Shown in pieces: positions 20,529-42,739 of a stretch of DNA of 42,739 bases. The number at the start of each line of letters is the position of its first letter. Position 1 is the stretch's first letter. The translations under genes and the position numbers were made by a program. The notes beneath the pieces were generated by a model, which had not been told where the DNA came from, made no database searches, and saw only the letters and a program-made list of their open reading frames with translations. The stretch is from an uncultured Candidatus Bathyarchaeia archaeon (GTDB lineage Archaea > Thermoproteota > Bathyarchaeia > 40CM-2-53-6 > DTGE01), in contig CAZAXO010000002.1 of assembly GCA_964489085.1 (NCBI GenBank), positions 1 to 42,739 of the forward strand, written 5' to 3'.

Positions 20529-22316
20529 TTGTCCTTGTTTCGCACACGTGTAAGAAGAGTGATTTTCCTTCTAATAATAATTCCTTATTTTAACCCTTCA
20601 ATTATAGCATTATGTTTGAATGAAGACGAGTGGGTGACAATTTTTGACCAAGATTTTTCACTAATAGAATCAATACCTTCAAATATTCATGTAATAAAAA
20701 GCTCAGATACAGAACAACCAGCTATACAAATATCTAAAAGATCTGAAGATAATTACTTAATCATAACAAAAGGCACGGATAACCGAGGCACAGTTGATAT
20801 ATTCGGTTTAACACCTTCAATTAAATGCAGATACTTGATAGACCTAGAGTGGTCCAACAGCCATTCAGCTTCATGGTCTGGTGCAGGAGTCTCTATCGGT
20901 ATAGGTGGAGTAATGTTATACTGCTACTCTAGTGGTGGAGGTTCTAGATTCTATATCCGTGGCCAATACTTCAATGCTACTAATGAATTTAATTCTCCCT
21001 TCGTCTGGGATTTAGGTACGAGCAATCGAGTAGAAATAACGATCGACACTGATACTACAGTTGGTAAAGCCTACCTTTCTTACAATAACTACAAAGCTGA
21101 GTTACCCTATTATCGTTTTTTCTGGGAAAAGGAGAAAATACAAACTGAAAACAGTACAGTCGAGTTACCTTATTATCGTTATAGATGGGTAGAAGATAAA
21201 TTCCTAAATACTTTTACTCCCGATACGATTGTACTAACGCCGCGCTCTGCTACTTCTGCTGAAGCAGATGATAATACGATAATAAAATTATATCGAGTCA
21301 CTCAGCAAGTTTATGCTCCGAACTCCGTCGTTACCATCGGATCTAATAAATATCAGGCCTTTGGATATGATGGTCCCCATCCGGCAAGTACAGTTGCTGC
21401 TGGTATGGATGAGATTAGAGATGCTAATATGAATGCAACAATATTTGCAGATATAGGTTACATGAATGATCCAAATTTTATTCAGTACCTGAAGGGATTA
21501 ATCGCTGATGGATGGGAACTCGGTATACACTACTCAGAGGGGTTGTCTACATTGAATTTAGCAAATGCCACAACCATGATGATGGAAGAGTATAAAATCA
21601 TCTCGGAGATGTTTGAAACCCAACCTTTAACCTGGTGTAGTTTAGGAAATTTAGATAACTCTACATATTCACTTCTGGCAAAAGAAAACCTGAATATGGT
21701 ATTTAGGAGCTTAAGGGTTATTCCACAAAATGTCCCAGGGAGTACTGATATAACGAATCCCACGATTTACTACTGGTTGGGTGCAGCAAAATCAGGTGCA
21801 TCAACCGTTCCTATTTATGTACATCAGACGGAGGTTGAACCTCAACCATCTAGGTCCTCTGTAGATGCAAGTAATTTTGATACTTGGTTATACTACATAA
21901 TTAATAACGGTGTTCGCTTAACTGGGTTCTATAAATGGTATATGATCAATAGTAATCAAATAGACGCTACATTCGATACTAGCGCTAATGAAACCACTAC
22001 CACAATCACTGCAAATACAAACGGGTATAATGCAATTATACTAGTCAAGATTAAATCTGATTCTGTGATTGCTGTACAACGAAACAAACAGATAATAGAC
22101 CACTCAATCTCACCGGAAGGATACATAATATTTGAGGTAGAAAACGGTGGAGAATATAAAATCACGACAATAAATTATCCTATAAATATATTTGATAAAA
22201 TGGATTTATTAATGTATTTAGCTGGTTTAGTGATTATAATCTTGATTACCTTGGCGGTCGATAAATATGGCAAAAAACCCAAAAACATGGATCATGAAGC
22301 AATAAATGATGGGTGA
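20529..22316 (+). CDS. Secreted protein with divergent NodB-like domain and C-terminal TM anchor; paralogue of N-terminal 480 aa of 31975..35112
   Basis: TTG start followed by a signal/anchor. It is colinear with the 1045-aa protein through the blocks 'DEWVT(I/V)', 'GYDGP', 'ATIFAD', 'DGWE(L/V)GIH', 'IPIYVH.TEV.P.PS', 'WYMINSNQ' and 'SPEGYIIFE'. It ends 'LLMYLAGLVIIILITLAVDKYGKKPK'. Confidence 0.85.
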   Translation: MSLFRTRVRRVIFLLIIIPYFNPSIIALCLNEDEWVTIFDQDFSLIESIPSNIHVIKSSDTEQPAIQISKRSEDNYLIITKGTDNRGTVDIFGLTPSIKCRYLIDLEWSNSHSASWSGAGVSIGIGGVMLYCYSSGGGSRFYIRGQYFNATNEFNSPFVWDLGTSNRVEITIDTDTTVGKAYLSYNNYKAELPYYRFFWEKEKIQTENSTVELPYYRYRWVEDKFLNTFTPDTIVLTPRSATSAEADDNTIIKLYRVTQQVYAPNSVVTIGSNKYQAFGYDGPHPASTVAAGMDEIRDANMNATIFADIGYMNDPNFIQYLKGLIADGWELGIHYSEGLSTLNLANATTMMMEEYKIISEMFETQPLTWCSLGNLDNSTYSLLAKENLNMVFRSLRVIPQNVPGSTDITNPTIYYWLGAAKSGASTVPIYVHQTEVEPQPSRSSVDASNFDTWLYYIINNGVRLTGFYKWYMINSNQIDATFDTSANETTTTITANTNGYNAIILVKIKSDSVIAVQRNKQIIDHSISPEGYIIFEVENGGEYKITTINYPINIFDKMDLLMYLAGLVIIILITLAVDKYGKKPKNMDHEAINDG

Positions 22317-24027: not shown

Positions 24028-24206
24028 AGCATCTATTAAAAACCTACTTTCCATTTGAATGCATTTTTTCACACACGCGTTAGACTGTTATTAGATAAAT
24101 GCTAGAAGGCTACTACCACAAGCCTCTAGAATTATTAACTCGGTTTTATGAATGAGTAGGCATAACAACTAATTATTTATATCTAAAAATCTATATAGAG
24201 AAATAC

Positions 24207-25146: not shown

Positions 25147-26154
25147 TTGGTAATAAAGATAATTTCTGATCAACAAACTTGGGATTCCTTTATAGATAAC
25201 AATCAATCTTCGACATTGATGCATAAATGGGATTTCTTAAAAATAATCGAAAGATATAGTAATTATAAATTACTTACATATGGAATTTATGAAAAAGATG
25301 AATTAATGTGCATCATACCATTTTTTTTAAAACATATCTTTTTTATAAAACTTTTATTTTCTCCGCCACCGAGAATGAGTTTACCTTATTTAGGCTTTGT
25401 ATTTCATAATGATTTCTTTAGTTTAAAAGCTAATGAAAAGGAGAGTTATTTAAAAACAATTTTTATGGAAATAGATAAAGAAATAAAAAGAATCAACCCA
25501 GATTATTTATTAATAACATCTACACCTAATTTAATAGATTTTAGGATTTTTAAATGGAACAAATATTCAGTGGACGTAAATTATACATATATGCTAGATT
25601 TATCTAAACCAATAAAACAGATATTAAAAGAAATGAAGAATACAAAAAGACAAAAAATAAATAAAGCTAAAAGAGAAAATATTGAAATATGCGAGTCAAA
25701 TGATTCCGATTATGTATTTGAATCAATTAAAGAAAAGTATAAAAAACAACACATGAATTCACCCATCATAAGCAAAGAATATTTAAATGATTTAAAAAAA
25801 TCATACCCAAATAATATCATATTCAGGATAGCTAAACAAGGTGAAAAAAAAGTTGGGTCAGAAGCATTAATTAATTATCATGACCTACATTTGAATTGGT
25901 TCGGTGGAAGTAAACCAGAACATGCGCGCTCACTACCTGTAAATGAATTGTTGATTTGGGACTATATTGAAAAAGCAAAGGAGAATGGTTTAAAACGATT
26001 TGACTTTGTAGGAGCAAATAACGAAAATATATCTTATTTTAAATCTCAATTTGGACCTGAGTTAACGCCGTATATTACATTAACAAGAAAAAGTCTGATT
26101 GGTAAAATCATGGAAAAAATATATTTAATGTTTATTAGGAAAAGCCTCTTTTAA
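25147..26154 (+). CDS. FemAB/BioF2-like (tandem GNAT-fold) transferase, full length
   Basis: 335 aa with a TTG start. It begins '..QQTWDSFI......MHKWDFLKII' and includes 'LDLSKPIKQILKEMKNTKRQKINKAKRENIEI'. The C-terminal region is 'NWFGGS..........NELLIWDYIEKAKENGLKRFDFVG' (GNAT core). Confidence 0.75.
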   Translation: MVIKIISDQQTWDSFIDNNQSSTLMHKWDFLKIIERYSNYKLLTYGIYEKDELMCIIPFFLKHIFFIKLLFSPPPRMSLPYLGFVFHNDFFSLKANEKESYLKTIFMEIDKEIKRINPDYLLITSTPNLIDFRIFKWNKYSVDVNYTYMLDLSKPIKQILKEMKNTKRQKINKAKRENIEICESNDSDYVFESIKEKYKKQHMNSPIISKEYLNDLKKSYPNNIIFRIAKQGEKKVGSEALINYHDLHLNWFGGSKPEHARSLPVNELLIWDYIEKAKENGLKRFDFVGANNENISYFKSQFGPELTPYITLTRKSLIGKIMEKIYLMFIRKSLF

Positions 26155-26174
26155 AGATCCGTGTGACAAGTTAG

Positions 26175-26882
26175 GTGGAACGTATGCCAAACAATGTTGT
26201 CCTAGTAATAGCAGTAATTGTAAGTCTAGCCATAGGCGCTGGTGGAGCCTATGTATATACATCGGGTCAGGTCACTAAATTAGCCAAAGAAAATGATTAC
26301 TTCCAGAAACAAAATGACTATCTGCTTAACCAAGTCACAACTTTATCATCTGAGAAAAACCAGCTGCAGAACCAAATCAACTCCCTAACGGAAGAAAGAA
26401 CAACCTTTCTAACCCAAATATCTACTCTTAATGATGAAAAAAAGAACCTTCAAACACAAGTAAATTCTCTAACTTCTGAAAAAACTGATTTAGTTAACAG
26501 TATCGATTTATTAGCAGAGACAATAGATGCAATGCATTCAGGTGAATATGTTCAAAGGATAAATTACAACATAACTGCTGGAACCGTGCTGACTCAATTC
26601 TTTGTACTTGATAAATATGGCATAATTTGGGAAACCGTAGTTGATTTTACTGGCACTTCCGCAAGAACGGTTTATTATTACTGGTATAAAGGGATAAGAC
26701 ACTATGTAATAAGTTATAGAAGCTCGCTTGGTGACTATTACGAATATCTCTATGGGATAATACAATTAGATATATCTCCAGATTGGAAAGGGGGTAATCA
26801 AATCTGGATGGGTTATAATACTCGTACTCAGTTCCCCAATGTAAGCATGGGTGGAAACATGTTTGTTGATATAAGCTCATAA
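26175..26882 (+). CDS. Membrane-anchored leucine-zipper stalk protein with C-terminal globular domain (paralogue B)
   Basis: It has the same architecture as 24207..24899 and ends 'GNMFVDISS'. A 48-nt stretch across the TM segment (26206-26253) matches 24229-24276 at 45 of 48 positions. Confidence 0.85.
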   Translation: MERMPNNVVLVIAVIVSLAIGAGGAYVYTSGQVTKLAKENDYFQKQNDYLLNQVTTLSSEKNQLQNQINSLTEERTTFLTQISTLNDEKKNLQTQVNSLTSEKTDLVNSIDLLAETIDAMHSGEYVQRINYNITAGTVLTQFFVLDKYGIIWETVVDFTGTSARTVYYYWYKGIRHYVISYRSSLGDYYEYLYGIIQLDISPDWKGGNQIWMGYNTRTQFPNVSMGGNMFVDISS

Positions 26883-27180
26883 AATATTTATTTTAATAAT
26901 TCAGATGTAACGAAGTTTCTAATATTCGAATGTGGATAACGCATACACCGTTTTTATTTTTAATTTTTTATGTTAGATCACAGAACATATCAATATATTT
27001 ACATTCTTGTCTATAATTTATCGATTGTCTTAAAAAAATTAAATTATCCCAAAAAGAATATATGCCAGATGTATTAGAATTATATATGGATATTAGGAGG
27101 TAAATAAGAAAAAAAACATGACTGTCTCCAAATGATTCAGTATACTTTCCCGCATATGTCTAAAACCTGTTGCTGCTGGG

Positions 27181-28596
27181 ATGTATGGACAAATGGAACA
27201 TATCCCCAAAAAAATGAAATCGGCCTTTCTAAGTTTGTTATTTATTAGTATCTTTTTCTATGTAAACAGTATCTACCGAGTTAAAGCAGAATCCAACTTG
27301 CCTTTGCAGGAATACATTCTAACCCATGCTGAAAGCTTTCTAATAGACGATATGGACTCTGAGTGGACAGCGATCTATGGGAGCCTAACTTATAATTTTG
27401 GAGAAGCAGGTCTCACAGGGATACCGCGGAGTGATGGCTCCGAGAAACTAAGGTTAGAGAAAACACTTACTGAGCCTGTGGATCTCCATGGTTGTAACAT
27501 TGGATTCGACTTAAAAACCACTAACATACCAAGTGACCTATCCATATATCTAGAGGTTTACGACATTCATGGAAAGATGTGCAGGTGGGGCTCATATCAT
27601 AAGGGTATAAATCTCCTTGGCTCAAATGATTGGACTCACCACATCTACTCTAGCGCCGGATATTATTACATGACAAGCGACATAGACATGAGTGAAATCT
27701 ATAAGATTATACTCAAGTTTTACTCCGCTTATAGTGACTGGACTTTCTCAATCGATGATTTAAGAGCATACCCGAATGAGCCTCTTTACCCTAACGGGGC
27801 TGTATTGATTGCTCTTGATGGACCCTATCCTGGTGTAGAGAATTGGCTTGAACCTAAATGTGATGAATACGGGTACAAAGCGACAGTAGCCACGGCAAGA
27901 AGAAATTATCCAGACGAAGAAGACCTAATAAGATTGTACAACAAAGGATGGGTAATTTGCGTATATGCAAGAATGTACGATAATAGCTACCCTCCTAAAA
28001 TATTACCCACTATAGAATTTACTGAGAATACCATTGGAGAACTCTCTTACTTGCATAGTCTCGGCATCATTGAAGGGGCCAATAATATACATTGTAACAG
28101 ACACATATCTGACGTCGAGTCTCAAGACCTATTGGATGATGAGTTCTTTTTTGTGAAAGGTTCATCATTTACTTCCAGTAACAAGGTAGCTTTCCCATTC
28201 ACAGCATTTTACGGCGGAAGCACAAGTCCAGAAATTGATAAGAAAAATATTAAGAAAGCAAGTGATGGAGGTTACATGTATATATTGTTTAACCATCTAG
28301 ATGGAGGAAGCTATTCAGCAGCATATACGCAAGAAGACGTAAACGATGTAATAGATCTTATACACAGCCTAGGTATGGAGGTAGTAACTCCTAAAGATAT
28401 CTATGAACGGATCATAGAGTACTATGGAACGCCACCACCGCCACCACCACCGCCACCATCAGGTAATCTTATCGTTAATTTAGATGGCGAAGGCTATCAT
28501 ATAACAGAAAACGGAGTAATCATGCACTTTGAAACATACTCTGATGTCTTGGCATACTTAGAAATAAGATTCAGAATATGGGAAAATTTATATTAA
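27181..28596 (+). CDS. Secreted multidomain protein with poly-Pro linker; central degenerate NodB-like region
   Basis: The signal peptide probably starts at M 27214 ('MKSAFLSLLFISIFFYVNSIYRVKA'). 'VLIALDGPYPG..[~18]..KATVAT..[~17]..KGWVICVY' echoes NodB strand order but lacks the His motif. A P9 linker is followed by a ~40-aa C-terminal module. Confidence 0.75.
   Translation: MYGQMEHIPKKMKSAFLSLLFISIFFYVNSIYRVKAESNLPLQEYILTHAESFLIDDMDSEWTAIYGSLTYNFGEAGLTGIPRSDGSEKLRLEKTLTEPVDLHGCNIGFDLKTTNIPSDLSIYLEVYDIHGKMCRWGSYHKGINLLGSNDWTHHIYSSAGYYYMTSDIDMSEIYKIILKFYSAYSDWTFSIDDLRAYPNEPLYPNGAVLIALDGPYPGVENWLEPKCDEYGYKATVATARRNYPDEEDLIRLYNKGWVICVYARMYDNSYPPKILPTIEFTENTIGELSYLHSLGIIEGANNIHCNRHISDVESQDLLDDEFFFVKGSSFTSSNKVAFPFTAFYGGSTSPEIDKKNIKKASDGGYMYILFNHLDGGSYSAAYTQEDVNDVIDLIHSLGMEVVTPKDIYERIIEYYGTPPPPPPPPPSGNLIVNLDGEGYHITENGVIMHFETYSDVLAYLEIRFRIWENLY
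28432..28458 (+). repeat. CCA/CCG trinucleotide microsatellite encoding Pro9
   Basis: 'ccaccaccgccaccaccaccgccacca' is nine consecutive Pro codons, arranged as an imperfect 9-12-nt unit repeated. Confidence 0.9.
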
Positions 28597-28658
28597 GGTA
28601 AAACGGTTTTCTTAAAATAATAAAAACTATAAATAAGATTATTATTTATAATATAAAT

Positions 28659-29756
28659 ATGTTTGATGAATCATCAAAAAAAATATATTCATACAGTGAA
28701 GGTGACGAATATGACATTATTAATTTATTAAAGATATGTTTCAAAGAATGGAATTTATATGAAGACCCAATAAATTATTGGAAATGGAAATGGATTGATG
28801 CACCTGGTGGTTATAATATAATATTTATCAAACAAGATGAAAAAATTGTGGCTATCACACATATAATGTATCTTAAAACTAAAGTAGGTAATTCAATACT
28901 AAAAACTAGTTATAGTGATGATTTAGCAACACATCCAGATTATAGGGGTAAAGGATTATATAAAGAGCTTCGAGACCTAATAGATAATGAGGAACCAAGT
29001 AAAGGAAGTAAAATAATTTTTTCAATTAACACACATCCCGCTACTATATATTCAAATTTAAAAAGAGGAAGAGTAGTAATACCATATAAAATAGAGCAAA
29101 TGACATTAATAAAAAAAACTTATTTACACTTTAAAAAATTAAATTTAAATCATAGCACTTTATATTCAATTGGTTTTTCGCTATTTAAATTATTAAATAT
29201 TATTAGAAATATATTTAAAGGGTTTAAACATGATATAAATAACAATTATCGAATTAATAAAATTACACACTTTGATAATAAATATGATGATTTTTGGGAT
29301 ATTATTAAAGAAGATTATCTATTAATCGGTTTAAAAAACTCTGAATTTTTGAATTGGAGATATTCAGATATTAGAGGAGGAAATCATAAAATATACGAAA
29401 TTTCTGATAATGATAAAATTTTAGGTTTTATGATTCTTGAAATTCGTGATAATAATGGATATAAAACAGGATATATTTTAGAATTATTATCTTTAAAAGA
29501 TCGGGAAGATGTAATAATTCATCTATTAGAAAACCTGAAAAAAGAAATGTTAGAATTAGAAATAAATACTATAAATTTTAAAACAACAAGTAAAAAGATG
29601 ATTAAATTATTAGATAAATTTGGATTTATTAAAATGCCTTTTACTAAAGAATTCCAAGCGATGTATAAATTCATTGACTCCGATGAGGAAAAGATTATTT
29701 TCCTAACTGCTCAACCTGACGAAATATATTGGGGTTATGGAAATTACTTTTTATAA
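28659..29756 (+). CDS. Two-domain GNAT-family acyltransferase (paralogue 1 of 3)
   Basis: 'Y.EGDEYDIINLLK..F.EW......INYWKWKW.D.P', the motif-A-like 'DDLATHPDYRGKGLY', and a second GNAT-like half 'ILGFMILEIRDNNGYKTGYILELL'. It is colinear with 35409 and 36998. Confidence 0.8.
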   Translation: MFDESSKKIYSYSEGDEYDIINLLKICFKEWNLYEDPINYWKWKWIDAPGGYNIIFIKQDEKIVAITHIMYLKTKVGNSILKTSYSDDLATHPDYRGKGLYKELRDLIDNEEPSKGSKIIFSINTHPATIYSNLKRGRVVIPYKIEQMTLIKKTYLHFKKLNLNHSTLYSIGFSLFKLLNIIRNIFKGFKHDINNNYRINKITHFDNKYDDFWDIIKEDYLLIGLKNSEFLNWRYSDIRGGNHKIYEISDNDKILGFMILEIRDNNGYKTGYILELLSLKDREDVIIHLLENLKKEMLELEINTINFKTTSKKMIKLLDKFGFIKMPFTKEFQAMYKFIDSDEEKIIFLTAQPDEIYWGYGNYFL

Positions 29757-29811
29757 AGATACATTATAATATTTTTTATTATAAAATAAATTTTTTTATC
29801 TAGATACCATC

Positions 29812-31767
29812 ATGAAATCGATAAAAAAGGTTATGTGTGCACCGAGGCATAAGTGGTTAGTTAAGGATATTGGGTGCAAGAATATGACTTTTAACAACAT
29901 CGATAAGTACTCACTCACATTAAAATTGATTATATTTCTTACGCCTTTATTATTTTTATTTGGTTTAATTGTGCCATATGTTTTTGGCTATATATCTTAT
30001 TCAATTTATTCTCTATATATTACAATCCCGTTAATATTCGCTATTGTAATATTTTATTTAGTGAGAAATAAAAAAGATATTATATTTGAATTTAATAATA
30101 AATATTTATATATATTCGATGTTTTATATTCACTAATATATTTAATATCTATAATCATCCTTTTACATTACGATATTAGAATTACTTTATATTTTATATT
30201 TTTGGATTGTCTTTTTATTATTATTTTAATTAAAATATTATTTTTTAATGACTTAGAGTATAATAAGTACGTTATAATGTTCCAAATAATTATTTTTTTT
30301 ATGAATTTATCTTATGGAATCTCTTTAAAATATCCCCAGTTTATTGGAAGAGGTGATACAATTTATCATAGTTGGTATATTAAATTATTAATAGAAGGTG
30401 GCTGGAATAATAGAACTATTATATCTAGTTATTATAGATTCCCACTTTGGCATTTATTTGTATCAGCTGTATCAATCATTACTAAGATAGATACAGAACC
30501 TTATAAGATCATGTTTCTATTAAATGGAATTATAAATTCTAGCATAATTATTATATCTTATTATATTTCTAAATTTTTATTTATTAAGGAAAAAATAGCT
30601 TATCTAACGAGTCTATTACTATGCATATATCCTAGTTTCATTGTTAATACGATACAAGCGCTTCCAAGAGCCATAAATGGAAGTCTTATTGCAGTTGTGT
30701 TATTTTTATTATTAAAACGCGATTACACAGTCTTTAAAGTTTTAGTCCTTTTTATTGGATTGTCTATGATCCTTTTCCACCATGCTTCAATGATATCTGT
30801 TTTAGTTATTTATTCAATTATGTTTAGTTTACAATTTTTCTATAGCATTAAAGATGAGGATCAAATAATAGATTTAAGATATATATTAATTATTATGCTA
30901 TGTATAATGGGATATTGGTTTTCTTATGCAGATTTTCTCTTAACTGATATTATGGCCTCACTGGATATTAGTGCATCAGCTGTTTATTCTTCACCAAGTG
31001 GGTTTCAAATAGCGGAGATGCTTAACTTTGTGCAATATTCCCCCTACATATTTTTTACTACGATTAGTCTCCTTGCGCTGTTATGGTATGGTTATTATGG
31101 AGACAGAGTTAAAATATTAGGCGTGGTTGGCTTCGGTCTTCTTGCACTATCTATTCCTAATCCTTTATCGTCTGTATATAGCCGTTATACAACACTTATT
31201 TTTAATAGATTAATGGAGTATACCTCTGTTTTCATTATTATAATTACTAGTTATGGTTTATTCTACGTTTTTCAAAAAGTAAGTAAGAGTATTAAAATTA
31301 TATTTATTGTATTCATGTTTTTAACTTGTATCTTATCAATAGATAATGATTTTACAGCAAGTGATAACCCATTAATTAAAAGAGATTTCTATACTTACTA
31401 TCTTTCCAACCCAGAGATCAGTTCTATAGAGACTTTAATTAAAATTTCTAATAATAATTATTTAATGTCCGACTATCAAATTTGGCGGTTTATTGTTCAT
31501 TCAAACTATTCTTATAAAAGCCATCTTTTAGAAGTTGACTACAACCATACAGTGTTTTTTAAAGAAAGATATATGGATTTAATCGTGATTAGAGAAAGTG
31601 AATTACAAAAAAGGTCTTTAAACCTTTTCGCAACTAATGAATATATCAGAGATCCTTCTTGGGTTGAGGGTAGGTTAGTGTATTTATTTTATGATGAGCA
31701 AGTTTTTGATACCCTTAATACTTATAATCGTAATTATGATAATGGTAATGTAGTAGCCTATAATTAA
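29812..31767 (+). CDS. Polytopic membrane protein (~13-15 TM) with C-terminal soluble domain; Wzy/GT-C-like polymerase or transferase candidate
   Basis: 651 aa. The first ~500 aa are extremely hydrophobic, followed by a ~140-aa hydrophilic tail. No WWDYG (AglB) motif was seen. The start may be ATG 29884. Confidence 0.8.
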   Translation: MKSIKKVMCAPRHKWLVKDIGCKNMTFNNIDKYSLTLKLIIFLTPLLFLFGLIVPYVFGYISYSIYSLYITIPLIFAIVIFYLVRNKKDIIFEFNNKYLYIFDVLYSLIYLISIIILLHYDIRITLYFIFLDCLFIIILIKILFFNDLEYNKYVIMFQIIIFFMNLSYGISLKYPQFIGRGDTIYHSWYIKLLIEGGWNNRTIISSYYRFPLWHLFVSAVSIITKIDTEPYKIMFLLNGIINSSIIIISYYISKFLFIKEKIAYLTSLLLCIYPSFIVNTIQALPRAINGSLIAVVLFLLLKRDYTVFKVLVLFIGLSMILFHHASMISVLVIYSIMFSLQFFYSIKDEDQIIDLRYILIIMLCIMGYWFSYADFLLTDIMASLDISASAVYSSPSGFQIAEMLNFVQYSPYIFFTTISLLALLWYGYYGDRVKILGVVGFGLLALSIPNPLSSVYSRYTTLIFNRLMEYTSVFIIIITSYGLFYVFQKVSKSIKIIFIVFMFLTCILSIDNDFTASDNPLIKRDFYTYYLSNPEISSIETLIKISNNNYLMSDYQIWRFIVHSNYSYKSHLLEVDYNHTVFFKERYMDLIVIRESELQKRSLNLFATNEYIRDPSWVEGRLVYLFYDEQVFDTLNTYNRNYDNGNVVAYN

Positions 31768-31974
31768 TATATCATTTAGGAGCAGGCAGGAAATAATTGA
31801 TTAAAATTTACGCCCTTGCATGTCAAACCACTTTAAACATAGGCTACCTTAGCTCTACCGATAAGCCTTCAGGAAAAACCTCAGGCCTATTACAAAACAA
31901 CTATAGATAACCTGAGGGGCTCTAAATCGATACCGTTTTAAAATTTTTTACTAGCATACGCTTAGCGAAATTAC

Positions 31975-34900
31975 TTAAGTTACGTTATTGTTTACGCCTT
32001 CATCCACTATTGGGCCACTATTTCCGCTTCCTTGATTATTCTCAGTTGTAGAATCTAGCCTTACGCCAACCGCGCTTCCCACAATATAGTTATTGTTGAT
32101 GAGGCTGTCGCGAGTATTATCCAAGGTTATCCCTGTCGTAGGACATCCTGAGATAGTGTTATCAAGTATCTGTATATTAGTGGCACGTCTACCAGAACCT
32201 CCTAACCATATACCATAAGCGGCTGCGTCTGCGATCGTGTTTTTCTGTACTATAATCTCGTCTTGGTAGTAAGTTACTCCTGTAACATAGTAGGTGCCTA
32301 CTCTTATTCCATAAATATCTAGGTCATGGAAGTTGTTACCAAATATTCTCCCTGAATAACCCATATGACTTATTCCATATCCTTTCCCAGTTGCCTCGTT
32401 GTATAAGAAGTCGATAAACTCGCCTACGGGGTGGCAGTCGTACTGGTTCTGCACACCCCAAATTCCAGATGATGATATCCAATACTGGCTATCCTCGCTA
32501 TAGCATTGCAGTATGGTGATATGTCTGGGTACTCCCGACATTGTCGAGGAATCAGCTGCAACCATGGCGTGTCGGCAATTATAGAACTCACAATATTCTA
32601 TAACCACGTTCTGACACGCATAGATTATGTCAACGCCGTACCCGGCCCCATCCAACGTGGCTTTTTCAAATATGTTGTGGTCTATTCTGCTATTTATGAC
32701 GCTATCGAAGCGTATAGCTTTGGACTCTATTCCATCGAATTGACAGTTAGTAATTCTTATGTTATCGCCATATATGAATCGTAAACCATCGAACTTCTTT
32801 TGTTGAACTGAAGGGTAGGTATCCCAAGCGTTTATCGTGTTCAGGAATCTGATCCCTTCGATAGTAATATCTTGTACAGGTTCAACCAGCGATACACTTG
32901 TTGTTGATTGAAGGTAGGTATCCTCAAGTGGAGCTTCTAAGGTTAAGGTGTTCCCGTTTATCCCTACTACTCTGCGTATCTCTCCCTGTTTCAGCCCAGG
33001 GGAGTTGTCGTGCCATACATCTGTTGACCAAATAAATATTAGATCATCGATGATCGCGCCCAGATTTGTAGCTGTTGTTACGGTAGTCTGACCTTTATTT
33101 AATGTGCTTGCAGGTTGTACTGTAACAAGTGTTTGACCAGCTGTATACATTATTGTTGAAGATACGGGTAGGTTGCTTACATCAAGAACGGTACCTGCCT
33201 CGCCTTTCAAGTTTATTCCGCTTCTCCCTGTTAGTCCAGAGGTTAATGGGTAAATTCCCGACTTTATCAGGATCGTGTCACCGTACTCAACTTTGGAGGA
33301 ATCTAGTGCGTTTGTTTGTATCGCTTCGTATGCCGTGCTAGAAGACATAGTAGTGCCATCTGCATAGGTAGTCAAATATGAATTTAGACCCAATAACTGA
33401 ACTGTGTGTATGTCAGAGTAAGTAGACTGTGAGAATGTGGCTATTACTGTCTTGTCTGAATCCATTATAATTGAAACAGGATTTGTAGAGCCAGACACAT
33501 CACCACTCCAATCACTGAATGTCCATCCAGAAGCAGGGCTCGCAAATAGTTGAACCATTGATCCAGAGTCGTAAGATACTTGATCAGGAATTCTAGTTAC
33601 TGATCCTTGTCCCACTGTGTTAACAGATAATGTGTAACCTGATGGCGGTGTTTCTGTTGTAGTAACTTTATAAGTTTCACTATCTTTAGCTTCAAAAATG
33701 ATGTATCCTTCTGGTGATGCCCAATGTTCAACTGGTAGACCATTACTTACACGAGTTACAGAAATTACTGTACTTTCTTGTATTTTGACTAGAACTATCG
33801 CGTTGTATCCGTTTGTATCTACTTCGATATCGGTATAACCAGAACCAATAGTCGAAGTGGGTACAGCATCTAATTGATTACTATTGATCATATACCAATT
33901 CTGATACCCTGTCAACTTAACATCATTACTGATAATTGCAGCTAACCATTGGTCAAACAAAACAGCATCTATATCAGAACCAGAAGGAGCTGGGCTTACC
34001 TCTGTTGTATGTACATAGATTGGTATCGTTGCTACTCCAGCGTTAGCCGCACCCATCCAATAATCGATATTGTCGTCTATTATATCATGGGATCCAACAT
34101 TAACTTGTGGATAAACCCTCCACATTCTTAGAAACATATTCAGGTTATCGTACACCCATTGTTCTTTCATTGGATCATCTAAACGCCCTCTACCTAGAAT
34201 ACACCAACTTAAAGGTGGACGACCTCCAAACGAACTTGTTATGCTGTTATACTCGTTAGTCATAATAGCTTGTTCCTCCTCCCATGTGTAGGTTGTACCA
34301 TCTCCAAGAGCGTAATCTGTGAAGTGAATGCCCACTTCCCAACCATCATCTACAAGACCGTTTAAATATGAAAGGTAACTTTGATCCAAGATATAGTCTA
34401 CATCTGCAAATATTGTACCATTCATTCCTGCTGCTCTAATTTCATTCATACCAGCCTCTACGCCAGAGCGAGCTTTTGGGCCATCATAACCATATGCTTG
34501 ATATTGAGTCGATCCAATTACGCTAACTAAGCCAGGTGCATTAACTTGCTGAGTAACGTGATATATGGTTGCTACACCTCCGGCAGAGGAAACCCCCAGT
34601 GTCATAGGAGTAAATATGTTTGCACTCCGATCTGTTATGTATGCAGGTTCATAGTATGGTAAATCGTCAGTAAAAGTCCCAGCTGAAATATTAGCTATTC
34701 CTAGACTAGAATCCGTATCAATCGTTATAATTGCTCGATTAGTACCCATGTTCCAAGAAAAAACAGTACCTGACCTATGAATACCGAGAATATAAGTACC
34801 AGAGAGCCTGAATCTGACCCCACCTACGCCTAAATACCCTCCAGATGAATCCCAACCAACGTCCACTATAAATCTAGATTTAACTGTCGGCACTAAACCA

Positions 34901-35112
34901 TAAATGGTATTAGTTGTTCCAGTTGGGTAATCCTGATCATAAACCGTCACCCATTCGTCAGGGGGTGAATCGGTTATTATAGATCCATTTGAGAAAATGA
35001 TTATAAAATCTGATAGTATCGACTTCGCTAGAGGTGCAAAGATCAAAGAACTCAAGAGGACAAGAAGAATGATGACAAATATCTTTAATGTACACTCACG
35101 CTTTTTCTTCAT
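31975..35112 (-). CDS. Secreted tri-modular protein: divergent NodB-like domain + InlB B-repeat-like domain + right-handed parallel beta-helix (pectate-lyase-like)
   Basis: It has a signal peptide 'MKKKRECTLKIFVIILLVLLSSLIFAPLA'. Residues ~50-480 are paralogous to 20529..22316. 'YTLSVNTVGQGSVTRIP....Y..GS.V.L.A.PASGWTFSDWSGDVSG..NP..I.M..DKTVIATF' is the B-repeat. The C-terminal ~450 aa carry repeated 'I.I..C.F', 'N.I.' and 'G(I/V)' beta-helix rungs ('ITIEGIRFLN','IRITNCQFDG','VVIEYCEFYNC','IQILDNTISG'). Confidence 0.85.
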   Translation of the reverse strand: MKKKRECTLKIFVIILLVLLSSLIFAPLAKSILSDFIIIFSNGSIITDSPPDEWVTVYDQDYPTGTTNTIYGLVPTVKSRFIVDVGWDSSGGYLGVGGVRFRLSGTYILGIHRSGTVFSWNMGTNRAIITIDTDSSLGIANISAGTFTDDLPYYEPAYITDRSANIFTPMTLGVSSAGGVATIYHVTQQVNAPGLVSVIGSTQYQAYGYDGPKARSGVEAGMNEIRAAGMNGTIFADVDYILDQSYLSYLNGLVDDGWEVGIHFTDYALGDGTTYTWEEEQAIMTNEYNSITSSFGGRPPLSWCILGRGRLDDPMKEQWVYDNLNMFLRMWRVYPQVNVGSHDIIDDNIDYWMGAANAGVATIPIYVHTTEVSPAPSGSDIDAVLFDQWLAAIISNDVKLTGYQNWYMINSNQLDAVPTSTIGSGYTDIEVDTNGYNAIVLVKIQESTVISVTRVSNGLPVEHWASPEGYIIFEAKDSETYKVTTTETPPSGYTLSVNTVGQGSVTRIPDQVSYDSGSMVQLFASPASGWTFSDWSGDVSGSTNPVSIIMDSDKTVIATFSQSTYSDIHTVQLLGLNSYLTTYADGTTMSSSTAYEAIQTNALDSSKVEYGDTILIKSGIYPLTSGLTGRSGINLKGEAGTVLDVSNLPVSSTIMYTAGQTLVTVQPASTLNKGQTTVTTATNLGAIIDDLIFIWSTDVWHDNSPGLKQGEIRRVVGINGNTLTLEAPLEDTYLQSTTSVSLVEPVQDITIEGIRFLNTINAWDTYPSVQQKKFDGLRFIYGDNIRITNCQFDGIESKAIRFDSVINSRIDHNIFEKATLDGAGYGVDIIYACQNVVIEYCEFYNCRHAMVAADSSTMSGVPRHITILQCYSEDSQYWISSSGIWGVQNQYDCHPVGEFIDFLYNEATGKGYGISHMGYSGRIFGNNFHDLDIYGIRVGTYYVTGVTYYQDEIIVQKNTIADAAAYGIWLGGSGRRATNIQILDNTISGCPTTGITLDNTRDSLINNNYIVGSAVGVRLDSTTENNQGSGNSGPIVDEGVNNNVT

Positions 35113-39323: not shown

Positions 39324-40289
39324 ATGAATGTAAAAGTCTCAGTTCTTGGGTGCGGAGTGTGGGGCCGTAACCATGCCAGAGTGTTCAGCGAGTTATCGAA
39401 TACGAAGCTAATCTCTGTCGTGGACCTTAACCAAGCAACGGCAAAAGAAGTCTCTGAAAGATACAAAACCGCTTACGCCCTTGATCCACTAGAAGCCCTA
39501 GCCGACCCCGAAGTCGATGCTGTTACGGTGTGTACCCCGACAGTTACACACATGAAGCTTGCTTTACAGGCAATGGAAGCGGGAAAGCATGTGCTTGTTG
39601 AGAAGCCCATGACTAATACCATCGAGGAAGCTGAGACTCTCATCGAGGCAGCAAAGAAAAACGACGTACACCTAGCAGTGGGTTTTGTTGAACGCTTCAA
39701 CCCAGCCGTTAGAGAGGCTTACAGGTACATCAATGAAGGGAACATTGGAGATATCATCCTTGCTCACACGAAGCGCGTAAGCAGATGGCCTGTCAGGATA
39801 GGGGACGTGGGTGTCATCAAAGACCTTGCTGTACATGACATAGATATCATCAATAAGCTGTTTGATGAAGAGGTTGGAAGCGTATTTGCTAATGCAGGCA
39901 ATATACAGCATAGCTTTGAGGATTATGCTAACATATTCATGAATTTTAAAGGTAAACGAGGGGCGTTTATAGAGACTAACTGGCTGACACCTAGGAAGGT
40001 TCGCAATCTAACTATTACAGGCACAGAGGGAATAATTAACGTGGATTACATAGACCAGACCCTGACCTTGGAAAACGACAAACAGATAACCCAGCCTTTC
40101 ATAGCCAAGGCTGAGCCCCTAAGACTTGAGCTCAAGAGCTTTATAAACTCGATTATAAATGATACCAGCCCTGAGGTCACCGGCTTGGATGGACTGAGAG
40201 CTCTTAAAGTTTGTGAGGCTGCATTAGAGTCCGCGGGCACGGGGAGCATAATGATATTAAACTCTGGTAACTGCGACCATTCAGTCTGA
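39324..40289 (+). CDS. Gfo/Idh/MocA-family NAD-dependent sugar-nucleotide 3-dehydrogenase (WbpB / UDP-GlcNAc(A) 3-dehydrogenase-like)
   Basis: 'VSVLGCGVWGRNHA' is the Rossmann motif, followed by 'VLVEKPM' and 'GFVERFNPA', which are Gfo/Idh/MocA signatures. The gene lies next to a nucleotide-sugar dehydrogenase and a DegT aminotransferase. Confidence 0.8.
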   Translation: MNVKVSVLGCGVWGRNHARVFSELSNTKLISVVDLNQATAKEVSERYKTAYALDPLEALADPEVDAVTVCTPTVTHMKLALQAMEAGKHVLVEKPMTNTIEEAETLIEAAKKNDVHLAVGFVERFNPAVREAYRYINEGNIGDIILAHTKRVSRWPVRIGDVGVIKDLAVHDIDIINKLFDEEVGSVFANAGNIQHSFEDYANIFMNFKGKRGAFIETNWLTPRKVRNLTITGTEGIINVDYIDQTLTLENDKQITQPFIAKAEPLRLELKSFINSIINDTSPEVTGLDGLRALKVCEAALESAGTGSIMILNSGNCDHSV

Positions 40290-40292
40290 GGT
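40288..40292 (+). promoter_or_regulatory. Shine-Dalgarno GAGGT for the TTG-initiated dehydrogenase gene
   Basis: In 'tGAGGTtaatggtTTG' the element overlaps the upstream stop and sits 7 nt before TTG 40300. Confidence 0.5.
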
Positions 40293-40299
40293 TAATGGT

Positions 40300-41658
40300 T
40301 TGAAGCTTGTTGTAGTAGGTATGGGTTATGTAGGAATACCCTCGGCGGCGCTGTTCGCTGACGTTGAGGGCATTAACGTTGTGGGCGTCCAGAGAAGATC
40401 AAGACGTTCAGGTTGGAAGATCGATTGCCTCAACCAAGGAAAATGCCCAATAGGTGGTGACGAGCCTGGGCTACCTGAGCTTATAGAGAAGGTAGTAAAG
40501 AATGGCTCTTTCAAGGTCACGGACGACACCAAGGTCTATGGGGAAGCAGATGTAATCTTCATTGACGTACAGACTCCGGTGGATGAAGATCATGTGCCTC
40601 GATATGATTCCCTGAGACAGGTAGCCGAAGAAGTCGGTACGAGTATGAAGAGAGGAGCCATGATAGGAGTGGAGTCTACCGTGGCACCTGGAACCACTCA
40701 GTATATAGTTAAACCTATACTTGAACAAGCTTCAGGGTTGAAGGCGGGAATAGACTTCAACCTAGTCTTCAGCTATGAACGAGTGATGGTCGGTCGCCTT
40801 CTCCACAACCTCCAGTATATGCCCAGAATTGTAGGCGGGTACACATCTGCATGCGCACATAGGGGAGCCGAGCTTTACGCCAAGATAGTAAAAACAGAAG
40901 TCTTTGAAACAGACTGTATGACGGCTGAGATAGCCAAGACTGTTGAGAACGCCTACCGTGATGTAAATATAGCCTTCGCCAATGAGGTCGCTCTCATCTG
41001 TGAGAGCTTAGGCTCAGACGTCCATGAGGTGCGCCGCTACGTCAACAGCCTGCCTTACGACCCAAGTGATCAAGACAAGAACCCCTTCAGGATGATGATG
41101 GCCCCCGGCGCAGGGGTGGGCGGCCACTGCCTCCCCAAGGACAGCTGGCTACTAAAGTACGGCTTAGACCAGCATGGCTCCTACAAGGTAACTCCTCACG
41201 TTATTGTGGACAGCCGAAGAGTAAACGACTATATGCCCACCCATATGAGAGAGCTTGTAACTGAGGCCCTGAAGGAGCGGAACGTCAAGCCTGAAGACGC
41301 ACGTGTAGCCATACTTGGCTACACTTTCCTAGAGAACAGTGACGATACCCGCAACACGCCAGCTCTCCCCCTTTACAGGATGCTCGAGGGAATATGCAGT
41401 GAAGTGGTTGTGCATGACCCCTATGTTAAAGAGGAAGGTGATGTTCACCTCACATCAGACCTAGAAGCAGCCATCAACGACAAGGACTGCATAACAATTG
41501 TAACCAAACACAGGGAATACTTCATGATGGATTTAACTTGGCTCATGGATAATATGAGAACCCCTATAATTGTTGACGGTCGTAACATCTTCAAGCCCGA
41601 GGAAATTAAAGAAGCGGGCTTCACTTATAGAGGAATAGGAATTGGTAAGACCGGCTAG
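40300..41658 (+). CDS. UDP-sugar 6-dehydrogenase family (WecC / WbpA-like UDP-N-acetyl-hexosamine dehydrogenase)
   Basis: 'LVVVGMGYVGIPSA' is the NAD motif. 'GGHCLPKD' holds the catalytic Cys and 'ENAYRDVNIAFANE' also fits. The length is 452 aa, and a TTG start is required to include the first beta-strand. Confidence 0.88.
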   Translation: MKLVVVGMGYVGIPSAALFADVEGINVVGVQRRSRRSGWKIDCLNQGKCPIGGDEPGLPELIEKVVKNGSFKVTDDTKVYGEADVIFIDVQTPVDEDHVPRYDSLRQVAEEVGTSMKRGAMIGVESTVAPGTTQYIVKPILEQASGLKAGIDFNLVFSYERVMVGRLLHNLQYMPRIVGGYTSACAHRGAELYAKIVKTEVFETDCMTAEIAKTVENAYRDVNIAFANEVALICESLGSDVHEVRRYVNSLPYDPSDQDKNPFRMMMAPGAGVGGHCLPKDSWLLKYGLDQHGSYKVTPHVIVDSRRVNDYMPTHMRELVTEALKERNVKPEDARVAILGYTFLENSDDTRNTPALPLYRMLEGICSEVVVHDPYVKEEGDVHLTSDLEAAINDKDCITIVTKHREYFMMDLTWLMDNMRTPIIVDGRNIFKPEEIKEAGFTYRGIGIGKTG

Positions 41659-41762
41659 CCTCAAATTCATAATATATCTATAGAAAATATATGTCGCCCG
41701 AAATTACAACCAATATATCAAAAAGGAAATACCTAAGTAAGGATAGTAAATTGTGATTAACA

Positions 41763-42739
41763 TTGGATAAACTAGCGATTAACGGAGGATCATCGGCCTC
41801 CCCAAACAGGATCAATATAGCCAAACCCATCATAGATGAAGATGTCCTCGATACAATCAAAGTAATCATAGAGACCGGCATGCTGAGACAGGGAAAATAC
41901 GTTAAAGAGTTCGAGGAAAGGTTCACTAAAAAAACCGGCGCCAAATATGCCTACGCTGTCAACAACGGAACAGCAGCGCTACACGTTGCCTATCTTTCAA
42001 CCTTAAACCCCGGCGATGAGGTTATAGTACCAAGCTTCACCTTCCTAGCGACGGCCAGCATGGTCTATTACTCAAGGGCAAAACCAGTTTTTGCAGACAT
42101 AGACCCCGAAACTTATCTAATCGACTTAGAAGACATTAAAAACAAGATCACCAGTAAAACCCGGGCCATCGTACCAGTTCATCTGTTCGGTAACGCCGCA
42201 GATATAAGTGGACTCAAAGACCTCTGCGAGGATCACCACTTGAACCTAATACACGATTCGGCTCAGGCCCATGGAACTAAATACGAAAATAAGGACATCG
42301 GCTCCTTTGATGATCTAAGCTGTTACAGCTTCTACCCCTCCAAGACCTTGACTACAGGCGAGGGGGGAATGGTGACCACTAACGACCAAGATCTGTACAG
42401 GAAAGGCACTCTTCTACGAGCTCATGGCGACGACGCACGCTACCATCACGTGATGATGGGCTTCAATTACCGACTCACAGAGATAGCTGCTGTCTTGGGC
42501 CTAGACCAGATGGATCACTTCGACGAGTTCCTGAAACGCAGGAAACATTGTGGCAAATACCTATACAGGTACATAAACAAAATCGGTGGATTAAGCCCTC
42601 AGAAGACCACACCCAAGGTAGAACACAGCTACAGCTATTTCACTCTCACCATGGATCTAGATCAATATAGTTGCACAAGAGACCAGTTCATTAAAGCCCT
42701 CAACGAGGAGAACATCGACTGTGCCGTCCACTACCCTAC
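41763..42739 (+). CDS. DegT/DnrJ/EryC1/StrS-family PLP aminotransferase (WbpE-like), 3' end cut by window edge
   Basis: This ORF is not in the track because no stop falls within the window. My translation from TTG 41763 reads 'LDKLAINGG....I.KPIIDEDVLDTI..V..TGML.QGKYV.EFEERF....GAKYAYAVNNGTAALH', then 'DEVIVPSFTF.ATA', 'HDSAQAHG' and 'SFYPSKTLTTGEGGM' (PLP Lys). A TGA lies 9 nt upstream in frame. Confidence 0.88.
   Translation, partial: MDKLAINGGSSASPNRINIAKPIIDEDVLDTIKVIIETGMLRQGKYVKEFEERFTKKTGAKYAYAVNNGTAALHVAYLSTLNPGDEVIVPSFTFLATASMVYYSRAKPVFADIDPETYLIDLEDIKNKITSKTRAIVPVHLFGNAADISGLKDLCEDHHLNLIHDSAQAHGTKYENKDIGSFDDLSCYSFYPSKTLTTGEGGMVTTNDQDLYRKGTLLRAHGDDARYHHVMMGFNYRLTEIAAVLGLDQMDHFDEFLKRRKHCGKYLYRYINKIGGLSPQKTTPKVEHSYSYFTLTMDLDQYSCTRDQFIKALNEENIDCAVHYP

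Follow-up and report, generated by a model that had tools for sequence, protein, structure and literature searches.

A predicted exported archaeal protein that joins a divergent CE4/NodB-like barrel to a tailspike-type beta-helix

What is the role of a 1045-residue protein that is encoded among glycan-synthesis genes of an archaeon and that pairs a deacetylase-like domain with a beta-helix? The gene lies in the window analyzed here, a 42,739-nucleotide stretch of a Candidatus Bathyarchaeia archaeon (assembly GCA_964489085.1, contig CAZAXO010000002.1), and its reading frame is intact and open. The source organism is uncultivated, and searches of the assembly yielded neither mcrA nor an SSU rRNA. 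The original prediction, made from the sequence alone, described a secreted fusion of a NodB-like domain, an InlB B-repeat and a parallel beta-helix, with a layout like that of PgaB and PelA. The features of the gene, and its paralogue in the window, are as follows.

31975 to 35112, minus strand: whole gene, 1045 amino acids plus stop codon.
35023 to 35112, minus strand: signal peptide or N-terminal membrane anchor, residues 1 to 30, read from the sequence.
34513 to 34965, minus strand: N-terminal beta-sandwich, residues ~50 to 200, from the model and Foldseek.
33868 to 34503, minus strand: divergent CE4/NodB-like (beta/alpha)7 barrel, residues 204 to 415, from the model, Foldseek, profile and hhalign.
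33652 to 33864, minus strand: small beta-sandwich closing the N-terminal module, residues 417 to 487, from the model.
33427 to 33636, minus strand: divergent InlB B-repeat PF18998, residues 493 to 562, Pfam E 4.6e-14.
31978 to 33420, minus strand: tailspike-type right-handed beta-helix, putative polysaccharide lyase, residues 565 to 1045, from Pfam, HMM and Foldseek.
32938 to 33156, minus strand: "rider" six-stranded beta-barrel inserted in the beta-helix, residues ~653 to 725, from DSSP and a weak Pfam match.
20529 to 22316, plus strand: paralogue of 595 amino acids, the N-terminal module alone with a C-terminal transmembrane anchor.

The domain layout was borne out by sequence and profile comparisons. 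At the N-terminus, MKKKRECTLKIFVIILLVLLSSLIFAPLAKS, a basic n-region (KKKR) precedes a hydrophobic core of 20 residues, a pattern that suggests a putative signal peptide, as originally proposed, or an N-terminal anchor. The proposed B-repeat was recovered by Pfam as PF18998 (Flg_new_2), which scored 52.6 bits against a gathering cutoff of 23.6, and the proposed C-terminal beta-helix matched PF13229 above its gathering score (E 3.9e-15) and was modeled as a right-handed beta-helix. Where about 430 residues had been called paralogous to the product of 20529 to 22316, residues 22 to 489 aligned with that product at 39% identity (E 3e-107). The paralogue lacks both the B-repeat and the beta-helix, ends in its transmembrane anchor, and has its synteny kept in L026. 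The genome holds two copies of the module in total; a search for a third paralogue found none, and the product of 27181 to 28596 did not match the module family profile. The nearest full-length relative of the 1045-residue protein, P0003, is 52 to 54% identical to it.

Direct searches of Pfam, NCBIfam and PDB sequences with the N-terminal 490 residues returned nothing; the fold of the module was revealed only by profiles and structure prediction. The module is rare: a set of 1.84 billion proteins contains 71 representatives, or some 70 clusters at 50% identity, and the family is mainly archaeal, with sequences down to 20 to 25% identity. Its commonest architecture is a stand-alone, membrane-anchored protein without any partner enzyme. 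Fusions to beta-helices occur in both orders and involve at least two unrelated beta-helix families, and this repeated association with beta-helix depolymerases is strong guilt-by-association evidence that the module acts on polysaccharide. Moreover, in Methanococcoides vulcani, which along with Methanosarcina is a cultivable carrier of the module, it adjoins genes for a canonical CE4 protein and disaggregatase-type beta-helix proteins. A literature search on the protein architecture and the module family gave nothing relevant. The analysis defines a compact domain family that had no prior Pfam or NCBIfam model and that carries a strongly remodeled CE4 barrel.

The AlphaFold model of the module (pLDDT 89.2, pTM 0.90) shows a beta/alpha barrel of seven units with a beta-sandwich on either side. 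DSSP assigned seven strand-helix units to residues 204 to 415, and the Foldseek neighbors of the barrel were consistently CE4 domains, including PdaC, SlCE4 and CtCE4, with PdaC, 7fbw, 2cc0, 2c71, 7ax7 and 5lfz at target-normalized TM scores of 0.60 to 0.68. Sequence comparison by itself gave marginal links in the same direction: the family profile reached four PDB sequences at E<=10, all CE4/NodB (best E 0.041), and hhalign against ten archaeal CE4 sequences returned E 3.5e-5 over 190 columns at a probability of 72%, the hhalign probabilities ranging from 72 to 87%. The four profile matches aligned fGlDgP with TFDDGP and GWElGIH with GNEVGNH, the same register that had been proposed from the CE4 motif order. 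PF01522 was the commonest weak Pfam match among family members (6 of 50, best E 0.0012); none of the 50 passed its threshold, and the 1045-residue protein (P0001) and P0002 had no PF01522 match at E<=1. Ahead of the barrel, residues ~50 to 200 are all-beta in the model; their Foldseek matches, ~160 columns long, are L-type lectin domains and the C-terminal sandwiches of GH32 proteins, and the region is a ConA-like/GH32-C-like sandwich that probably binds carbohydrate. The sandwich at residues 417 to 487 is kept family-wide (TNGYN...EGYIIFE). We conclude that the fold of the module and its remote homology to CE4/NodB deacetylases are well supported, as is the NodB-like barrel of the original prediction.

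Residue conservation in the barrel was counted over 64 family modules. The strings that had suggested a CE4 site, GYDGP (D210), GTIFAD (D237) and DGWEVGIH (H263), do occur at the spacing first described and fall among the most conserved columns, with D210 in 62 of 64 modules, D237 in 59 and H263 in 63; R329 is invariant (64/64) and H368 occurs in 62. The model puts D210, D237, E259, H263, R329, H368 and E371 at the C-terminal ends of strands or immediately past them, and in the hhalign alignment the CE4 counterparts are the base Asp for D210, the first metal His for H263 and the motif-5 His for H368. Half of motif 1 (TFDD) is kept, D210 being its first Asp; the metal-Asp position is Gly in 54 of the 64 modules (G211 here). 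Motif 2 (H-[ST]-x-x-H) retains H263 and has lost its second His, as had been noticed in both paralogues: four residues on, the 1045-residue protein has Tyr, its paralogue Gly and 55 of the 64 members a gap in the alignment, and the family as a whole thus lacks this His. The Arg position of motif 3 (R-x-P-Y) is Cys304, a Cys in 54 modules; past the following strand comes the invariant R329, whose counterpart in the archaeal CE4 sequences is the Arg of "YGRT". Motif 5 (L-x-H) is present, with H368 directly after the strand at residues 365 to 367 and aligned with CE4 "vLxxH". The metal triad whose conservation was checked across homologues did not hold up, one metal His being kept. With the metal Asp and second His gone and Cys304 in place of the motif-3 Arg, canonical metal-dependent deacetylation is unlikely as such. 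Cys304 was also considered as the nucleophile of a thiol amidase and rejected, as it is Ala, Thr, Val, Ser or Asp in 10 of the 64 modules, all of which keep D210, H263, R329 and H368.

That the whole family has lost the motif-3 Arg and two of three metal ligands could indicate that the barrel is a pseudo-enzyme whose part, shared with the two beta-sandwiches, is limited to binding or positioning glycan, leaving a single-activity lyase; the short paralogue would then tether glycan to the membrane. The prevalence of stand-alone, membrane-anchored members with no partner enzyme is consistent with such a role, and inactive CE4-fold proteins exist, the Foldseek matches including 2vyo, an E. cuniculi chitin deacetylase family member that we take to be inactive. 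Against it, D210, D237, H263, R329 and H368 remain near-invariant at the strand C-ends despite the low identity within the family. Moreover, D210 and H368 are jointly lost in two unrelated sequences, P0046 and the first of two module copies in P0003, the second copy of which has both residues intact. That the two residues vanished together twice, on one occasion from a duplicated copy, is more easily explained by a functioning acid/base pair than by a binding surface. We therefore consider a barrel confined to binding somewhat unlikely and regard deacetylase activity as putative.

The beta-helix was modeled with a pLDDT of 94.1, and DSSP assigned six strands to residues 653 to 725, ahead of the rungs, where Pfam gave a weak match to K1-lyase_Rider (residues 668 to 736, E 0.068); an insertion domain has been described in gp49 of LKA1 (PMC5701251). 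The top Foldseek matches (E 1e-15 to 1e-21) were all tailspike depolymerases, headed by the K1 capsule lyase 7w1c (E 1e-21, TMq 0.71) and including K64-1 S2-4, phi297 gp61, AP22 gp54 and LKA1 gp49 (4ru4, E 4e-15). Consistent with the structural matches, the beta-helix family HMM found 4ru4 as its sole sequence-detectable PDB relative (E 6.8e-16), the beta-helix matched the PHROG tail-spike family phrog_7458 (2e-21), tblastn reached Gordonia and Klebsiella phage tailspikes (1e-9), and hhalign gave probabilities of 98% to gp49 and 93% to the K1 lyase. Both are proven lyases, gp49 cleaving at 2,3-diacetamido-2,3-dideoxy-hexuronic acid, and their catalytic residues are known: Tyr311, His373 and Arg397, with Arg333/His334, in the K1 lyase, and Asp497, His499 and Arg459 in gp49 (PMC5701251, PMC8822698). 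hhalign places gp49 R459, D497 and H499 on R847, D892 and H894, and K1 lyase Y311, R333, H334 and H373 on Y825, R847, H848 and H894, with R847/H848 following Y825 at +22/+23, exactly as R333/H334 follow Y311. Y825, R847, H848, D892 and H894 are invariant in eight family members, and the conserved positions of the beta-helix are E711, R801, Y825, R847-H848, R863 and D892-x-H894. In the same alignments, K1 lyase Arg397 (the neutralizer) and gp49 Arg329 had no mapped counterpart, and gp49 His494 fell on N889. We conclude that homology of the beta-helix to phage tailspike polysaccharide lyases, with catalytic Tyr, Arg-His and Asp-x-His residues kept, is well supported, that the domain is not adhesin-like, and that it is a putative lyase acting by beta-elimination at a uronic acid.

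The beta-helix could instead be a polymer-level C5-epimerase or a glycoside hydrolase. C5-epimerases and lyases have in common the abstraction of the C5 proton and an Asp-x-His motif, and lower in the Foldseek list, at E 1e-6 to 1e-9, stand the mannuronan C5-epimerases AlgE4/AlgE6, one alginate epimerase/lyase and hydrolases of GH28/GH87/GH110. However, the best structural matches and the one PDB relative detectable by sequence are tailspike depolymerases, and the base, acid and carboxylate-binding residues of the K1 lyase are kept at identical spacing. We consider an epimerase or hydrolase quite improbable and retain the putative lyase assignment.

The surrounding island carries GT2, DUF354, flippase, FemAB/GNAT and DUF1616 genes, as well as UDP-GlcNAc 3-dehydrogenase-like, UDP-ManNAc dehydrogenase-like, DegT aminotransferase and VimE-like deacetylase genes. 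From these sequences, the Wbp/Vim-like assignments being sub-threshold NCBIfam matches, the island seems equipped to make acylated 2,3-diamino uronic acids by a Wbp/Vim-like route, with the products of 39324 to 42737 and 19423 to 20463 and the FemAB-like genes as candidates for its steps. The same matches and the gene neighborhood point to the island's own polymer, predicted to contain 2,3-diamino-2,3-dideoxy uronic acids, as the likely substrate. That the gene is instead a virus or provirus remnant, encoding a tail-spike or receptor-destroying protein, is very unlikely: the matches of the beta-helix to PHROG tail-spike families and phage proteins, the failure to find the module in 40 genomes of nearest relatives or in 300 of the same phylum, and the lower G+C of the island (31 to 34%, against 37 to 45% in the flanks) would fit such an origin, but it is rejected as the main reading on account of the gene context, with glycan-synthesis neighbors and no virion, terminase or integrase genes nearby, and of the module's absence from IMG/VR, and it also sits poorly with a predicted secretion signal in place of a virion-attachment N-domain and with the module being encoded within cellular glycan clusters of Methanosarcinales.

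On balance, we think it moderately likely that the product of the gene is exported and processes a cell-surface glycan through two enzyme activities. From the N-terminus, such an enzyme would consist of a signal peptide or anchor, a lectin-like sandwich, the CE4/NodB-type barrel, the small sandwich, the B-repeat as a spacer and the tailspike-lyase-type beta-helix. The beta-helix would cleave a uronic-acid-containing polymer by beta-elimination, with Y825 and H894 as base and acid, D892 positioning H894, and R847/H848 holding the carboxylate. The barrel would bind the same polymer and remove, or at least recognize, N- or O-acyl groups, with D210 as base, H368 as acid and R329 as helper; H263, perhaps with D237 or E371, might form a noncanonical metal site, or no metal might be used at all. 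The enzyme may thereby trim, release or remodel envelope glycan, as do AlgL, PelA and PgaB for bacterial exopolysaccharides and disaggregatase in Methanosarcina.

A bolder version of this proposal, which we put forward as unlikely in full, is that the module founds a CE4-derived, mainly archaeal family with a rebuilt active site that is metal independent or uses an alternative metal site (the D210/H368 acid-base pair, R329, H263, D237 and D/E371). It would strip N-acyl or N-aminoacyl groups from the 2,3-diamino uronic acids of a Wbp/Vim-type envelope glycan and, when fused, gate the tailspike-derived lyase, so that a deacetylase fold and a phage depolymerase together would make a device for release, or "disaggregation," of self-glycan. 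The protein is also a clear example of a putative lyase of the phage-tailspike type that a cell, through an archaeal glycan island, would use as a secreted enzyme. Should both activities be confirmed, it would also offer a useful reagent for taking archaeal envelope glycans apart, and the CE4 variant would show that fold working without the canonical metal triad.

Comparison with known systems places each half of the protein. CE4/NodB deacetylases (Bacillus subtilis PdaC 6H8L, Streptomyces lividans CE4 2CC0 and Clostridium thermocellum Xyn11A-CE4 2C71) have the same seven-unit barrel and motif order and share three residues with the module, the base Asp (D210 here), the first metal His (H263) and the motif-5 His (H368). 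In contrast to these deacetylases, the module falls below the Pfam threshold, has Gly for the metal Asp, no second His and usually Cys at the motif-3 Arg, conserves D237, R329 and D/E371 as residues of its own, is always flanked by two beta-sandwiches, and is mainly archaeal. Fusion of the barrel to a polysaccharide depolymerase, as here, is also seen in Xyn11A-CE4 and in termite Xyl-CE4 (7AX7).

Gp49 of Pseudomonas phage LKA1 (4RU4) and the K1 lyase of Klebsiella phage NTUH-K2044-K1-1 (7W1C) likewise have a beta-helix with an inserted six-stranded barrel, are detectably homologous in sequence, and share the Tyr, Arg-His and Asp-x-His residues; the substrate of gp49, a 2,3-diacetamido uronic acid polymer, belongs to the class of sugar that the island appears able to make. 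Unlike them, the archaeal protein is cell encoded, lacks a C-terminal discoidin domain, and leaves gp49 Arg329 and K1 Arg397 unmatched, and its beta-helix is preceded by a predicted signal peptide or anchor, a CE4-like module and a B-repeat rather than by a virion-attachment domain.

Disaggregatase-type proteins of Methanosarcina are archaeal exported beta-helix enzymes that depolymerize their own envelope polysaccharide, and in M. vulcani such genes share a cluster with a stand-alone module; the 1045-residue protein differs in having a tailspike-lyase-type beta-helix and no Disaggr_assoc or Disaggr_repeat Pfam match. PgaB and PelA, finally, are also single exported polypeptides, encoded beside biosynthetic genes, that combine a CE4-type with a glycan-cleaving domain. 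Their cleaving domains, GH153 and GH166, are unrelated to the beta-helix, their CE4 domains keep the canonical metal site, and neither protein is among the 50 Foldseek matches listed for either model. Because the partner here is a lyase-type beta-helix, the PgaB/PelA-like layout of the original prediction stands as domain logic and falls as family membership. As a glycan-processing fusion of that kind, with a putative deacetylase, the reading came through both the fold check and the catalytic-cluster check, and, provided that it has both activities, the protein would be an archaeal equivalent of PgaB, PelA and AlgL.

The gene at 31975..35112 on the reverse strand is an intact open reading frame encoding the 1045-residue protein under study, P0001. 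The N-terminal stretch MKKKRECTLKIFVIILLVLLSSLIFAPLAKS resembles a Sec signal peptide or a signal anchor, as read directly from the sequence. BLASTP aligned residues 22-489 with the short paralogue, the 595-aa product of 20529..22316 on the forward strand, at 39% identity (E 3e-107); the paralogue carries a hydrophobic anchor at its C-terminal end. Pfam searches returned a divergent InlB B-repeat. In the C-terminal third they gave matches to Beta_helix and NosD, and the K1-lyase "rider" was weakly matched at residues 668-736. The first 490 residues had no direct match in Pfam, NCBIfam or PDB sequences. Thus, all features of the original prediction, namely, the signal peptide-like N-terminus, the paralogous N-terminal part, the B-repeat, and the beta-helix repeats, are present. 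Together with the structural models, these results give P0001 the following layout, in which the part preceding the B-repeat is referred to as the module:

residues ~54-200, all-beta sandwich (module model)
residues 204-415, seven successive strand-helix units (module model)
residues 417-487, second small sandwich (module model)
residues 493-562, divergent InlB B-repeat (PF18998, E 4.6e-14)
residues 565-1045, beta-helix: cap, then a six-stranded inserted barrel at ~653-725, then rungs (beta-helix model)

The structure of the module was predicted from a 50-sequence alignment (mean pLDDT 89.2, pTM 0.90). In a Foldseek search of the PDB, the matches of good geometry to its central part were all CE4 enzymes: PdaC (6H8L/6H8N; target-normalised TM 0.67-0.68, rmsd 4.1 Å), acetylxylan esterase 7FBW, 2VYO, SlCE4 (2CC0), Xyl-CE4 (7AX7), 5LFZ, and CtCE4 (2C71). 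The N-terminal sandwich matched GH32 C-terminal and L-type-lectin sandwiches. Three sequence tests for a CE4 link were made independently of the predicted structure. A family profile compared with all PDB sequences gave only four matches at E<=10, all CE4/NodB (best E 0.041), and paired fGlD-gP with TFDDGP, TiwaD with ATFF, and GWElGIH with GNEVGNH, the same register in which GYDGP..GTIFAD..DGWEVGIH had been proposed to mirror the CE4 motif order. PF01522 was the commonest weak Pfam match among family members (6/50), and a 64-sequence core profile aligned by hhalign with ten archaeal CE4 sequences drawn from related genomes at E 3.5e-5 over 190 columns. Alone, each of these links is marginal. 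Taking the three together with the predicted fold, we conclude that remote homology to CE4 is the clear best reading of the module, and the seven strand-helix units, the structural neighbors, and the CE4/NodB-only profile matches agree with the NodB-like domain first proposed.

HMMER, run exhaustively over 1.84 billion representative proteins, recovered only 71 module relatives, and a word-indexed search of 5.8 billion proteins recovered five. Most relatives are 500-650 aa long and begin with a signal sequence; many also end in a TM anchor. The module is a rare, coherent family. Among named genomes, it occurs chiefly in Methanosarcina, Methanococcoides, and Methanomassiliicoccales; a few Chloroflexi and one Pelotomaculum also carry it. 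The window's own genome contains exactly two copies, and the module was not found in the 40 nearest-relative species genomes or in a sample of 300 genomes from its phylum. Across the glycan island (window positions 15000-33000), the G+C content falls to 31-34%, from 37-45% on either side. These findings make the module an accessory trait of patchy distribution, and the same data suggest that the island is accessory and possibly transferred. We note that the closest relative of P0001, P0003 (1813 aa; 376-5817 of locus L027), has two tandem module copies; the base Asp and acid His are both Tyr in copy 1 (GYYGP, VYVYQTE) and intact in copy 2, such that copy 1 looks like a degenerate duplicate.

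Within the module, D210 aligns with the catalytic-base Asp of CE4 motif 1, H263 with the first metal His of motif 2, and H368 with the acid His of motif 5. The metal-binding Asp next to the base is replaced by Gly (G211), the second motif-2 His is indeed missing, as originally observed (Tyr in P0001, a gap in 55 of 64 modules), and Cys304 occupies the motif-3 Arg position. A barrel lacking the metal Asp and second His might be a non-catalytic binder, a reading that we consider possible but doubtful because the residues at the acid/base positions are near-invariant. Among 64 modules, often only 20-25% identical, D210 is conserved in 62, D237 in 59, H263 in 63, R329 in all 64, H368 in 62, E259 in 54 (Asp in 9 more), and D/E371 in 58. 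In the model, D210, D237, E259, H263, R329, H368, and E371 each sit at the C-terminal end of a barrel strand or directly behind it, and such strand ends form the catalytic face of these barrels. Moreover, D210 and H368 were lost together in two unrelated sequences, copy 1 of P0003 and the relative P0046, as would be expected if the two cooperate as an acid/base pair. Cys304 (window 34201-34203; Cys in 54/64 modules) is dispensable, as the 10 modules without it keep the other conserved residues. The conserved acid/base residues, their joint loss, and the lost metal ligands point to a family that looks like a working enzyme, with the CE4 acid/base machinery kept and the Asp-His-His metal site rebuilt or abandoned. 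D237 or E371 may be substitute metal ligands. Of the two options originally raised, the non-catalytic domain is disfavored, and a different metal site may be in use.

The beta-helix (model pLDDT 94.1) was best matched in Foldseek by the Klebsiella K1 capsule lyase 7W1C (E 1e-21, TMq 0.71), with K64-1 depolymerase S2-4, phi297 gp61, AP22 gp54, and LKA1 gp49 also among the best matches. A domain-family profile had one significant match in the PDB, the LKA1 tailspike gp49 of a Pseudomonas phage (E 6.8e-16). Phage tailspikes and depolymerases were matched in BFVD, the tail-spike family phrog_7458 in PHROGs (2e-21), and Gordonia and Klebsiella phage tailspikes by tblastn (1e-9). When gp49 and K1 lyase sequences were taken from their phage records, hhalign probabilities were 98% and 93%, respectively. 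The proposed gp49 site, His499 coordinated by Asp497, with Arg459 (PMC5701251), maps to H894, D892, and R847. The experimentally supported K1 residues, Tyr311 as base, His373 as acid, and Arg333/His334 at the carboxylate site (PMC8822698), map to Y825, H894, and R847/H848 with identical Tyr-to-Arg/His spacing (+22/+23). The eight-member family alignment shows no variation at Y825, R847, H848, D892, or H894. No counterpart of K1 Arg397 or gp49 Arg329 was mapped in P0001 by hhalign; R863, which is invariant and lies on the rung between, may serve as the neutraliser. The tailspike-lyase homology and invariant catalytic-type residues mark this as a beta-helix of enzyme type rather than one of adhesin repeats, and the anticipated catalytic cluster was found. 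We conclude that the beta-helix is, by strong homology, a tailspike-type polysaccharide lyase domain with putative lyase activity; with these residues conserved, an epimerase or hydrolase is improbable. Despite the phage matches, a viral origin of the gene is very unlikely.

Within the set of 71 relatives, fusions of the module to right-handed beta-helices occur in both orders, module first in P0001, P0003, P0009, P0011, and P0020 and beta-helix first in P0013, P0015, P0019, P0024, and P0078. An HMM of the P0001 beta-helix did not detect those of P0011, P0018, P0020, and P0024, and thus beta-helices of two or more families have been joined to the module. In Methanococcoides vulcani (L048/L049), a stand-alone module gene (9001-10698) directly follows a canonical PF01522 CE4 deacetylase gene (8019-8879) in a cluster with CapK_C, PGA_cap (CapA-like), GT4, a flippase, and two disaggregatase-type beta-helix proteins. 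The fusions and this cluster provide Rosetta-stone arguments that the module acts on polysaccharide alongside depolymerases.

Judged from its gene content, the window is a glycan island, with a flippase, GT2, DUF354, two FemAB-like and three ~360-aa GNAT proteins, a split DUF1616, a 651-aa polytopic membrane protein, and the following genes:

1-630 (+), canonical CE4 (PF01522, E 9e-16), truncated by the contig start
19423-20463 (+), 346-aa gene directly upstream of the short paralogue, weak NCBIfam VimE match (E 6e-22, below cut-off)
within 39324-42737, UDP-GlcNAc 3-dehydrogenase-like gene (E 7e-106, below the NCBIfam equivalog cut-off)
within 39324-42737, UDP-ManNAc dehydrogenase-like gene (E 2e-97, below the NCBIfam equivalog cut-off)
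within 39324-42737, DegT aminotransferase (below the NCBIfam equivalog cut-off)

VimE is a UDP-2,3-diacetamido-2,3-dideoxy-glucuronate deacetylase. CE4-type genes of three grades thus occur in the window: canonical, VimE-like, and, in two copies, the divergent module. The gene content around the short paralogue is conserved in a contig of another assembly, GCA_041304925.1 (L026, genes 356-11917), which keeps the order FemAB-like/346-aa VimE-like/module and also has DUF1616 pieces, a polytopic membrane protein of ~630 aa, FemAB/Acetyltransf_6, DUF354, and a coiled-coil protein. The Porphyromonas Wbp/Vim pathway, which uses the CE4 deacetylase VimE and the FemAB-like transferase VimA, produces 2-N-aminoacyl-3-N-acetyl-glucuronic acid or its amide (PMC7468200). 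With its VimE-like gene, FemAB-like (VimA-like) genes, and WbpA/B/E-like trio, the island appears to resemble this bacterial route to an N-aminoacylated diamino uronic acid (19423-20463, 16592-17344, 25147-26154, and 39324-42737). We know of no description of such a pathway in archaea. LKA1 gp49 cuts O5 antigen by beta-elimination at 2,3-diacetamido-2,3-dideoxy-hexuronic acid (PMC5701251). We infer that the polymer built by the island would contain acylated 2,3-diamino uronic acids and would be the substrate of P0001, whose physiological role would be that of an exported processing enzyme with deacetylase-type and lyase activities.

The fold and homology of P0001 are strongly supported. PgaB, PelA, and AlgL are modifying or cleaving enzymes encoded with biosynthetic genes, and Xyn11A-CE4 of C. 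thermocellum is a depolymerase-CE4 fusion; P0001 follows the same logic, and to that extent the PgaB/PelA-like layout first proposed holds. What sets P0001 apart from both groups is its partner domain, of the tailspike-lyase type; its CE4-like barrel also departs from the CE4 family in several defining features. We therefore file P0001 as a variant outside the PgaB/PelA/AlgL and CE4-fusion families.
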